Origin: an uncultured Chloroflexia bacterium
GTDB taxonomy: Bacteria > Chloroflexota > Chloroflexia > QHBQ01 > JADMIH01
Assembly (NCBI GenBank): GCA_963797095.1
Contig: CAWCNY010000005.1
Location: 608,001 to 672,000 of the forward strand
DNA: 64,000 nt
Direction of reading: 5' to 3'
The translations under genes were made by a program, and so were the position numbers. Below the pieces are notes generated by a model. The model was not told where the DNA came from. It saw only the letters and a list, made by a program, of their open reading frames with translations, and made no database searches. Positions 27,472-29,657 of the stretch are shown in pieces (within the stretch, counting starts at the first letter, position 1; the number at the start of each line of letters is the position of its first letter).

Positions 27472-28570
27472 CTACTTGTATGAGATCCTGGGATCAACGA
27501 GAGTGTAGAGGATATCAACAAGCATGTTGGCGAGAGCTACGGCTACGATTAGCATGAGAGTGATGGCGAGAGTGAGAGGAAAGTCGAGGGGGAGGAGGGT
27601 CTGGCCGGGAGGGCAGGCAAACTCTCCTACCAGACTGGTGACGAGACAGCCGCCAAGGGCCTTGTAATAAAGTTGGCCCATGCCGGGATAGCCGAAGACC
27701 GATTCGACCATGATAGCTCCGGAGAGCACGACGGGCATCATGAGGCCAACGGTGGTGATTATGGGGATGAGAGCGTTGCGAAAGATGTGCTTGAGAACGA
27801 CCCGCTGAAGGCTCAGACCCTTGGCCCAGGCGGTGCGTATGTAGTCGTGACCCAGCACTTCAAGCATCGAGAAGCGGAGCTGCCTGGAGAGGAGGGCGAT
27901 CTGGGGTAGGGCAAGAGTAGTGACAGGCAGGATGAGATGGTAGAGACGGTCGAAGACATTATTGACGGAGTCGCTGCTAGTGGAGGCGAGAGCGCCGGGG
28001 AGGTAGGGGAGCCAATCCCAGCCGAAGCAATTCCTGAACTGGTAGGGGAGTATGCCGAAGAGGACAGCGAGTATTAGGCCGAGCATAAACGGAGGGATGG
28101 AGAAGCCGGTAAAGGTAACGAGGGTGAGGATATGGTCAAGCCTGGAACCCTGCTTGATCGCAGCGATTATGCCGATAGGAATGGCGACAAGTACGGCAAG
28201 AACAAGGGCGAACCCGACCATCAGGAGTGAATTGAGCCAACGCGAGCCAATTACATCGTTTATGGGTTGAGATGGGATGAAGCGCGCACCAAGAACGCGT
28301 TCGGTGACGCCAAAATCGCCCGTGAGGATGCCGGAGCCTCGAATGTGGAGAGGGCCGATTGTAAAGTCAACGCCTTTGGGGATATTAGTCTGAACGTTGT
28401 CATCGTCGAAAACGGTGGAGAACATATCGTCGGGGTCGAAGAGCCAGGCGAAAAAGCTGGCGGGCCAGGGTTTGCCGAGACCGTATTGTTGGTTGAGGGC
28501 CTGCTTTTCGACTGGGAAGCTCCTATTGTACATAGCGGCGGGGCTGCCTGGCATCACATATACAAGGAGC
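27472..28570 (-). pseudogene. OppB/DppB peptide ABC permease lacking its normal N-terminus
   Basis: GDFG, LYHLILP, SMLEVLGHDYIRTAWAKGL (EAA loop), VDPRI; the first TM start is replaced by unrelated sequence. Confidence 0.72.
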
Positions 28571-28790
28571 GTGTGATGACTCCGCATGGCGTAAACGCCA
28601 GCAGCTTCTACGGTTTTGCACCGATGCATACTCATCCATATGCCATTAAGGTTGCACTATAGGAGACACCTAAGATGCTTTTACGCTGCACAAGGGTTTC
28701 GTGCAACAACCCGCTAACATCTTGCATTATCAAAGTGCGGACTACTACCCGAAGGCAATAGTGGCGTGTAGCATTGGTTAGCTTCCACGT
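28571..28790 (-). ncRNA. candidate structured RNA or foreign insert replacing the oppC-oppB junction
   Basis: At least six stems with G-U pairs on the minus strand, including a 9-bp stem with a C(UUCG)G loop; about 49% GC and no G/C skew, unlike the flanks. Confidence 0.5.
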
Positions 28791-29657
28791 AATACTGTAG
28801 GAAAGGCTTACCGTAGATGCGAGGAGATTGCCCCAGGAGACCAGGGGCGGGTCGTAGATGCCCTGATTGAAGTAGGCAAGGACGGCTTCCAGGATTATGA
28901 AGTCGCCAACGGCGAAGGTGGCGGCTACCAGGATGGGGGCAATTGTGTTGGGGAGGAGATGGCGGAAGATGACGCGCCGCCTTCGAGCGCCAAGAGCGCG
29001 GGCGGCCTCGATGAAGGGCTGGGTGCGGAGGGAGAGGATGGAGCCGCGTACGAGGCGAGCAAGGCCCATCCAGCCGAAGAGGGTGAAGACGAGGCTGATC
29101 ACGCCAAGGGTCATGTAGACGCTGGTAGAGGGACTTTGCCAGAGGGGCATGAAGACCATGAGCTGGCGCAGGAGACGAAGGGTAAGCAGGAAGAGCGGGA
29201 GGAGTGGAAGGGCGAGCAGGAGATCGGTAAAGCGCATGATGACGGTATCAATCAGGCCTCCGAAGTAGCCTGCGACGCCGTCCACCAGGGAGCCGATGAG
29301 GACCATGAGTAAGGTGGAGGCGAGGGCCACGAAGAGGGAGGTGCGCCCGCCGACGAGGAGGCGTGTCAGGTAGTCGCGACCAAGCCAGTCGGTGCCAAGC
29401 CAGTGGGTGCCGCCTTTGAGAAGGTCGGCTTCTCCGAAGTGAGCATAGCCCTGGACCGGATTCACCTCATCTACTTTGAACGAGGTGAACATGGGGACGA
29501 AAATGCAGGCCAGAGCGAGAAGGGCTAATGCGATAGCACCAGCGAGGGCACTCTTTTGCCTGCGAAAGCGCCGCCAGACAAGCGCAAATTGAGTTTCTGT
29601 ACGTTTTGGTACAGCACTGAGTGTTTGCCCACCAGAGGTTAGGATTGCATCGGCCAT
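28788..29657 (-). pseudogene. OppC/DppC peptide ABC permease lacking its C-terminal TM
   Basis: HWLGTDWLGRD, GGRTSL, FIEAARALGA, HLLPN, SWGNLL; the final TM and D.LRD.LDP tail are absent. Confidence 0.75.

Follow-up and report, generated by a model that had tools for sequence, protein, structure and literature searches.

A probable left-truncated copy of a gene-less IS200/IS605-family element with an omega-RNA-like module between incomplete oppC and oppB genes of a Chloroflexia bacterium

Introduction

The DNA analysed here, a 64,000-nt stretch from the genome of an uncultured Chloroflexia bacterium (hereafter the window), contains on its minus strand two neighbouring permease genes, oppC-like and oppB-like, and at the place where the first should give way to the second it carries a little over 200 nt that resemble neither. 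A sequence-only reading of the window had proposed that these bases are foreign to the operon, that they fold as RNA when read on the minus strand, and that they represent an unrecognised non-coding RNA or mobile RNA element that had taken the place of the gene junction. This raises the question of what the segment is and how it came to lie between the two genes. To address it, we compared the operon with those of relatives, searched for further copies of the segment in the source genome and across the class, and evaluated its proposed fold by covariation. We conclude that the segment is probably a dead, left-truncated copy of a 313-nt non-autonomous element of the IS200/IS605 family (PATE-type), which carries an omega-RNA-like scaffold and has recently multiplied in this genome.

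Results

An insert of 218 nt separates two incomplete permease genes

The segment extends from 28573 to 28790 on the minus strand (218 nt), within two bases of the limits originally proposed for it (28571-28790), and its composition does depart from that of its surroundings: in 200-nt windows, the GC content of the segment is 0.46-0.505 and its GC skew -0.10 to -0.01, compared with 0.535-0.66 and +0.15 to +0.37 in the flanks. On one side of it, an oppC-like ORF (28632..29657, minus strand) matches OppC_N and BPD_transp_1 over profile positions 8-132 of 184 only, while on the other an oppB-like ORF (27472..28635, minus strand) has a full BPD_transp_1 match. Nine loci were compared with this operon, and three of them come from same-genus relatives that hold both genes in the same order (C then B). 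In these three, OppC continues for ~43 further residues (NLNPF...DPHEV*) beyond the equivalent of ...SYSIT, the spacer between oppC and oppB measures 37-100 nt, and ~24 OppB residues precede ...VLVY(L/I)MP. The comparison with the relatives upholds the earlier statement that the 3' end of OppC and the 5' end of OppB are missing: what remains is an OppC-like permease gene without its last ~43 codons (28791..29657, minus strand) and an OppB-like permease gene without its first ~24 codons, i.e., without the first membrane helix (27472..28572, minus strand). Outside the insert, both permease genes align to the relatives without breaks.

The two reading frames do not recover on crossing the insert. 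The OppC open frame enters it and acquires 52-53 junk codons before a stop at 28632, and the apparent OppB ATG at 28635 lies inside it, such that a start there would miss the first membrane helix. Judged by these frames, the effect of the insert is the inactivation of both permease genes. The host DNA between the two points at which homology stops amounts to about 245, 269 and 320 nt in the relatives, which means that the correspondence in length first suggested between the insert and the lost coding sequence is only a rough one (218 nt vs. about 245-320 nt). As a separate observation, the oppC-oppB spacer of one relative (G012, L059:about 1940-2035) is occupied by inverted arrays of a 7-base repeat of the type TTTTAGA.

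The insert belongs to a multi-copy family in the source genome

We searched the genome from which the window derives (6.02 Mb in 8 contigs; a metagenome-type assembly of 93% completeness) for further copies and found the segment to match the final 218 nt of a 313-nt master repeat letter for letter (100% identity). Eight full copies of this repeat are present (311-313 nt, 99.4-100% identity), along with one copy at 86% identity, one of 266 nt, the 218-nt copy of the window and a number of shorter or more diverged relatives. With positions 1-313 counted along the top strand of the element, which is the minus strand of the window, the segment at 28573..28790 corresponds to positions 96-313 (RNA part and right end; 100% identity over 218 nt to the eight full copies) and is a copy whose left end has been truncated. 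In the other copies similarity continues for 95 bases beyond the window segment on one side only; the sequences flanking the different copies are mutually unrelated, and every copy ends at the same right-end base. Taken together with the intact operons of the relatives, these copies bear out the suggestion that the segment is foreign to the operon and stands in place of the oppC/oppB junction. The eight copies at 99.4-100% identity are also what would be expected if the 313-nt element had multiplied, and been active, recently.

The element appears to bring no protein gene of its own. All three top-strand frames are closed by stops, and the sole ORF, located on the opposite strand, comprises 21 codons. 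A blastx search of the element against the TnpB proteins encoded in this genome returned no significant match (best E 2.5), and a search for tnpB beside the diverged own-genome copies found none; the tail of frame 2 of the element (...TVEAAGV...) bears a loose likeness to the C-terminal tails of the resident TnpBs. Across the empty sites of nine copies, reconstructed in silico, open frames of 109-301 aa were obtained.

Several further observations concern this family. On the strand opposite the RNA, full copies carry a strong ribosome-binding-like site (AAGGAGAG) followed by the 21-codon ORF (MSNLLSAEPQPINGHGFQGFL), the stop codon of which is a TAA formed together with the TTAC target; the length and C-terminus of this ORF are roughly kept in an 83% copy from a relative. 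Since it overlaps the left-end hairpin, its conservation may reflect DNA structure alone. Element top-strand positions 1-66, read in the opposite direction, correspond to L005:1748-1813 (+), a region missing in the window copy. At G000:C6:415029-415123 (L073) we found a mini-version of ~95 nt, apparently made up of a left-end piece (model positions 6-34, a weak match with E 0.35) joined to the terminal 65-69 nt of the right end. Finally, in the same-genus genome G001, seven contigs (C598, C677, C769, C882, C484, C715 and C497) start or stop inside the element, and so many short contigs breaking there suggest that it is probably present in high copy number in G001 and fragments that assembly.

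The ends of the element are those of the IS200/IS605 family

We compared the flanks of 10 copies and found neither terminal inverted repeats nor a target-site duplication; the two ends of the element (GTGATGAC... and ...TTCTGTAA, plus strand) are not complementary. A classical MITE was considered as an identity for the element and rejected, given that MITEs of classical DDE transposons, which are likewise short, multi-copy, non-coding and gene-disrupting, have terminal inverted repeats and target-site duplications, whereas the 313-nt element has neither. Instead, the tetranucleotide TTAC, which is the target of IS608, lies immediately 5' of the element in 7 of 10 full copies (GTAC, CAAC and CTAC take its place in the remaining three), and TCAC closes the right end of all copies (terminus ...GAGTCATCAC, also given as ...GAGUCAUCAC), with a motif ...GAGU.GUCAC kept at the right end class-wide. 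Subterminal hairpins are found on one and the same strand, the left one (GCCCAUUUAUGGGC) at element positions 24-37 and the right one at 282-304 (helix P9 below), and both of them covary.

The left end also ties the element to resident elements of the same genome, which holds eight TnpB-type and four Y1-TnpA-type loci. Specifically, element positions 1-78 share 84.6% identity with the left end (C3:1054376-1054453) of a 1.67-kb tnpA-tnpB element at C3:1052789-1054457, itself also preceded by TTAC, and a second group of resident elements has the same left hairpin (96% over 28 nt). In the 1.67-kb element we additionally noted that the TnpB frame (L012/L019) ends (...MVILA*) just 5' of an in-frame continuation, GLSCMGIQSLEAT, which resembles the C-terminal tails of other resident TnpBs, and that this TnpB stop falls within the match to the RNA model described below.

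Nine helices covary across diverged copies

To evaluate the claim that the minus strand folds, we compared its folding energy with that of shuffled sequences. Read on the minus strand, 28571-28790 reaches -73.5 kcal/mol, an energy equalled by 3 of 200 shuffles (z = -2.22), while the plus strand is indistinguishable from its shuffles (z = -0.13; 81 of 200 as good). The full 313-nt element gives z = -3.07 on the RNA strand, where 0 of 100 shuffles fold as well, and z = 0.02 on the opposite one. A search of Rfam at permissive E-values with the segment and one full copy gave no relevant family match: the best hits (E 1.4 and 3.3) were to unrelated short models, far below gathering scores.

We then aligned the RNA part of 13 diverged copies, drawn from four genomes of the genus and including no unpublished genome, and scored nine helices with a total of 56 pairs. 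Pairing was found in 89.6% of the cells of this alignment, compared with 73.4 +/- 1.0 after shuffling (0/500 as high), and 39 of the 56 pairs had changed on both sides, compared with 24.9 +/- 2.5 (again 0/500 as high); in slid controls, in which the partners were moved by 1-3 columns, pairing fell to 25-46%. In line with this, RNAalifold applied to ten copies of the whole element (a set which includes the unpublished genome G016) returned 64 pairs, 29 of them with compensatory changes. Near-identical copies in the genome and nine helices backed by covariation are thus the outcome of the homology check that had been proposed for the segment.

All nine helices fall within the 218 nt of the window copy (all coordinates that follow are on the minus strand). 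The first of them, P1 (CGUGGAAGC / GCUACACG; 28765..28789), starts one base inside the truncation point, and 6 of its 7 pairs have changed on both sides among the 13 copies. It is followed by P2 (ACUAUUGCC-UUCG-GGUAGUAGU; 28741..28762), with 5 of 9 pairs changed on both sides, and by a central domain (28654..28738) in which P3/4 (GCAC/GUGC) closes P5 (28668-28727; 6 of 9 pairs changed on both sides) and P6 (28684-28708; 7 of 8), and which holds the conserved motifs GGGUUG and GUAAAA. Beyond the central domain lie P7 (GCAUAU/GUAUGC; 28626..28643), all 6 pairs of which have changed on both sides, and P8 (CGGU/ACCG; 28611..28623), a helix of 4 pairs with 90% of cells paired and one pair changed on both sides that is also present in tnpB-linked matches. 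The last helix, P9 (CUGCUGGCG-UUUA-CGCCAUGCGG; 28582..28604; 7 of 9 pairs changed on both sides), is the subterminal right-end hairpin, ~9 nt from the end, and by its position would be the hairpin that a Y1 TnpA binds, by analogy with what PMC3201880 describes. The module closes with a 3' tail, AGUCAUCAC (28573..28581), that ends in the conserved cleavage motif TCAC; this is the natural right end, at which all own-genome copies stop.

The local stems of the original fold are all recovered in this set, since those drawn at 28741-62, at 28672-79/28716-23 together with the stem enclosed by it, and at 28626-43, 28611-23 and 28587-600 are P2, P5, P6, P7, P8 and P9, respectively, and the count of seven G-U pairs is the same in the master copy. 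Two larger features of that fold find no support in covariation. The long-range CCGCA/UGCGG helix, said to close a multibranch loop, is paired in 81.5% of cells, compared with 80.4% after shuffling (261/500 shuffles as high), and the 3' GCGG covaries with GCUGC of the right-end hairpin rather than in a long-range helix. Similarly, the proposed switch between GGGUU and AACCC is paired in 78.4% of cells vs. 78.3% in shuffles (331/500 as high). The direction first read from the G-U pairs has a counterpart in the alignment, with 70 G-U vs. 30 A-C cells and two G-U pairs kept in 12 of 13 copies; as single-stranded DNA might also use G-T wobble, this strand signal alone is no proof of a role as RNA.

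A structured segment on the sense strand of an operon could in principle be an independent regulatory RNA that arose between the two genes, such as a riboswitch or attenuator. Such an RNA would not be expected to recur as identical copies in at least 9 unrelated contexts, nor to leave both neighbouring genes truncated instead of regulated, and neither an Rfam match nor covariation of the proposed switch speaks for it. We give this explanation almost no credence.

The module is related to the 3' ends of tnpB genes

A covariance model of the RNA part, R1, was built from the same 13 copies (thus again with no unpublished genome) and found to match the 3' ends of four of the eight resident tnpB loci, with E-values from 5e-13 to 5.5e-12. 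At these loci of the genome itself, the R1 matches reach back into the tnpB frame by at least 67 nt and stop at the IS boundary. With an nhmmer profile made from ten diverged copies, one of which is from the unpublished genome G016, the final ~73 positions fall immediately after the zinc-ribbon region in four tnpB genes. These profile matches make the module a homologue of the tnpB 3' end and right end, the part of such elements that encodes omega RNAs. The likeness is uneven along the module: in the four resident tnpB-linked matches, P1 and P2 are weakly shared, P7-P9 are well shared and the 85-nt central domain is absent. Given that P3-P6 are absent from these four and from the three distant tnpB-linked matches with alignments at hand, no cognate TnpB with this exact scaffold was identified.

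Upstream of the module, a TATAAT-like hexamer occupies element positions 83-88 in 13 of 13 copies and is preceded by TGn in 11 of them; the version of this TGnTATAAT-like box in the master copy is CGCATAAT. A sigma-70 scan did not call the box as a promoter, as it has no good -35. Were it to function as one, it would start an RNA at about element position 95-97, that is, just before P1. Among distant tnpB-less matches, a TGnTACAAT box was found directly upstream in only 2 of 11. At the other end, the host sequence that abuts the right end on its 3' side (ACGCUCCUUGUAUAUGUGAU; 28553..28572, minus strand; oppB codons T-L-L-V-Y-V-M) occurs nowhere else in the genome at lengths of 12, 16 or 20 nt, and would be the guide of a read-through omega RNA if TnpB biology as set out in PMC10055086 applied here.

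It is conceivable that the nine-helix fold acts at the DNA level only, as single-stranded DNA during transposition, and that no guide RNA is made. The TnpA of this family does act on folded single-stranded ends (PMC3201880, PMC5027513), and the scan for sigma-70 promoters called none. On the other hand, TnpA needs just the subterminal hairpins, yet covariation extends to nine helices across 218 nt; the homology of the module is with the tnpB 3' end/right end, given in PMC10055086 as the site of the omega RNA; and a TATAAT-like box is conserved just upstream. We consider a purely DNA-level role unlikely and favour an omega-RNA-like scaffold.

Gene-less matches are found across the class

Across the class, R1 found matches in 30 of the 151 genomes, spread over 13 of the 52 genera, with the unpublished G016 counted in. 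When the best locus was taken from each of 25 more distant genomes, a TnpB homologue was present in 14, and in 10 of these 14 the R1 match lies on the strand of the TnpB alignment and overlaps its final 74-173 nt; the other 11 loci are surrounded by frames of housekeeping type, with no TnpB found within 1.5 kb. The central domain is replaced by other sequence in the three distant tnpB-linked matches whose alignments were viewed, and it is kept, with GGGUUG...GUAAAA, in tnpB-less relatives from other families (L082, L085 and L095; G042, G148 and G046). The fact that gene-less matches in other families keep the central domain makes them look like an old, separately evolving lineage and not like a product of local decay. 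The whole-element alignment and fold, the nhmmer matches and the genome tallies rest partly on the unpublished G016, and the main conclusions were reproduced without it.

The two junctions and the origin of the truncation

The two edges of the insert are of different kinds. The right junction is the natural end of the element, which abuts ACG CTC CTT... of oppB. At the corresponding position the relatives read TAC ACx (2 of 3) or TAT ACC (1 of 3), i.e., a conserved Tyr codon, and because the natural right end directly follows the position of that codon, the element would have entered oppB at a TAC-type site (TAC|ACG), right after the Tyr codon. The left junction, on the oppC side, lies within the element and carries TTAC (28789..28792, minus strand), the target motif that precedes the full copies of the family. 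It reads CAGTATTAC|GTGG, and in the intact element the retained part is preceded by TAAC (positions 94-97); as the last two bases, AC, are common to TTAC and to element positions 96-97, the left breakpoint can be placed only to within 2 nt. Just one further copy is left-truncated, that at C3:348102-348367 (L075), which starts from position 48/49 and again has TTAC at the joint (CCACTTAC|TGAT).

The presence of TTAC at both truncated joints hints that a transposase, not random deletion, made them, though two of two is a small sample. These joints suggest that the transposase may have joined TTAC-like sites, as opposed to a random deletion with 1-2 nt of microhomology. An insertion coupled with an adjacent deletion, or an aberrant transposase event, is simpler than the view that the segment replaced the junction and was not simply inserted. 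The unbroken alignment of both genes to the relatives and the 100% identity between this copy and the master mark the event as recent.

A more radical origin for the left breakpoint is that a break in oppCB was patched from RNA, i.e., with a reverse-transcribed or RNA-templated copy of an omega-RNA transcript. The kept part of the element begins at position 96-98, with P1 at 97 and the -10-like hexamer at 83-88, which places the breakpoint within ~2 nt of the predicted transcription start and keeps the whole scaffold, and the right junction is what a transcript reading out of an element in oppB would carry. However, this is a single post-hoc coincidence involving a start site that is predicted, not mapped; the TAM-like TAAC at 94-97, together with the TTAC on the oppC side, accounts for the breakpoint as well, and the second truncated copy begins at 48-49, away from the predicted start. 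We judge an RNA-derived patch to be very unlikely; if it were true, a guide-RNA module could spread or persist without its DNA left end. The joints hint at a less radical variant, in which TnpA joined two TTAC-like sites, one in the host and one internal to the element, and thereby made a replacement deletion.

We also weighed an assembly artefact, in which a fragment of the repeat was misplaced between two pieces of a contig. The repeat is multi-copy, the assembly is of metagenome type (8 contigs, 93% completeness), and three public soil-metagenome runs, examined as contigs, yielded only the repeat at low depth plus one 151-nt piece of oppC, with no contig bridging either 28573 or 28790. Against this, the insert is flanked by two neighbouring genes of a single operon, arranged and oriented as in the relatives; one junction is the exact natural end of the element and the other lies mid-element, which is unusual for repeat-induced misjoins; and the 8 other full copies were cleanly resolved with unique flanks. 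For these reasons we regard an artefact as very unlikely.

Discussion

The preferred reading, a truncated IS200/IS605-family element, can be set out as a sequence of events. A full copy would consist of a left end with its subterminal hairpin 3' of a TTAC-like target, the TGnTATAAT-like box, and the RNA module of ~218 nt and nine helices that ends at the right end. Such copies would transpose in single-stranded form by 'peel and paste', with a Y1 TnpA encoded elsewhere in the genome as the enzyme. The internal box may drive an omega-RNA-like transcript out of the right end, picking up the flanking bases as its guide, with which a TnpB encoded elsewhere would cut the emptied TTAC site, so that recombination restores the element. 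In the window, a copy that had entered oppB would then have lost its first 95-97 nt along with about 245-320 nt of upstream host DNA (the oppC tail, the spacer and the oppB head), either through an end-joining deletion or through aberrant TnpA strand transfer between TTAC-like sites. Having lost its left end and promoter box, the window copy is expected to be immobile, and, lying in sense, would be transcribable only within the oppCB message.

With respect to the initial proposal of an unrecognised non-coding RNA or mobile RNA, the first half of the idea holds in that a structured, RNA-like module within a mobile element is present; its kind, on the other hand, is a known one, namely part of an IS200/IS605 DNA transposon. 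According to Meers et al. 2023 (PMC10055086), PATE elements 'often encode omega RNAs', which have to be used in trans by the TnpB of another element. With PATEs that encode omega RNAs already in print, the segment is no new class of RNA. The closest comparison is with the PATE-like elements of Geobacillus stearothermophilus (ISGst families) described in that article, which likewise have no protein gene, are multi-copy and have ends in common with resident tnpA/tnpB elements. The family described here differs from them in its Chloroflexota host, in its own conserved TGnTATAAT-like box and in its extra central domain of ~85 nt, which is not seen in the seven tnpB-linked relatives with alignments at hand, although closer parallels may exist in print.

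In layout, the module also resembles the omega RNA (reRNA) of ISDra2 (PMC8612924, PMC10097598), which is likewise a long, structured RNA specified by the 3' end of tnpB together with the right end; it terminates at the transposon boundary and takes the flank as guide. In ISDra2 and its relatives, the target-adjacent motif is the target motif of the transposon. The difference is that the module here stands without tnpB. IS608 of Helicobacter pylori (PMC3201880, PMC5934647) is similar in having subterminal hairpins, no inverted repeats and insertion at a specific tetranucleotide; it is, however, autonomous (tnpA and tnpB), and the right-end motif here is TCAC. As for the truncation, we found no description of left-end truncations or adjacent deletions made by TnpA in the literature, including the available text of PMC5027513, which is no proof that they are absent from print.

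These results reduce an odd structured insert in oppCB to the commonplace remains of a transposon, and show both permease genes of the operon to be recently dead. For the TnpB field, they offer a well-resolved, gene-less family of omega-RNA-like elements from Chloroflexota-type genomes, with what appears to be its own promoter box and an extra central RNA domain. The two left-truncated copies with TTAC at their joints are a small lead on whether Y1 transposase or repair makes solo guide-RNA modules along with adjacent deletions.
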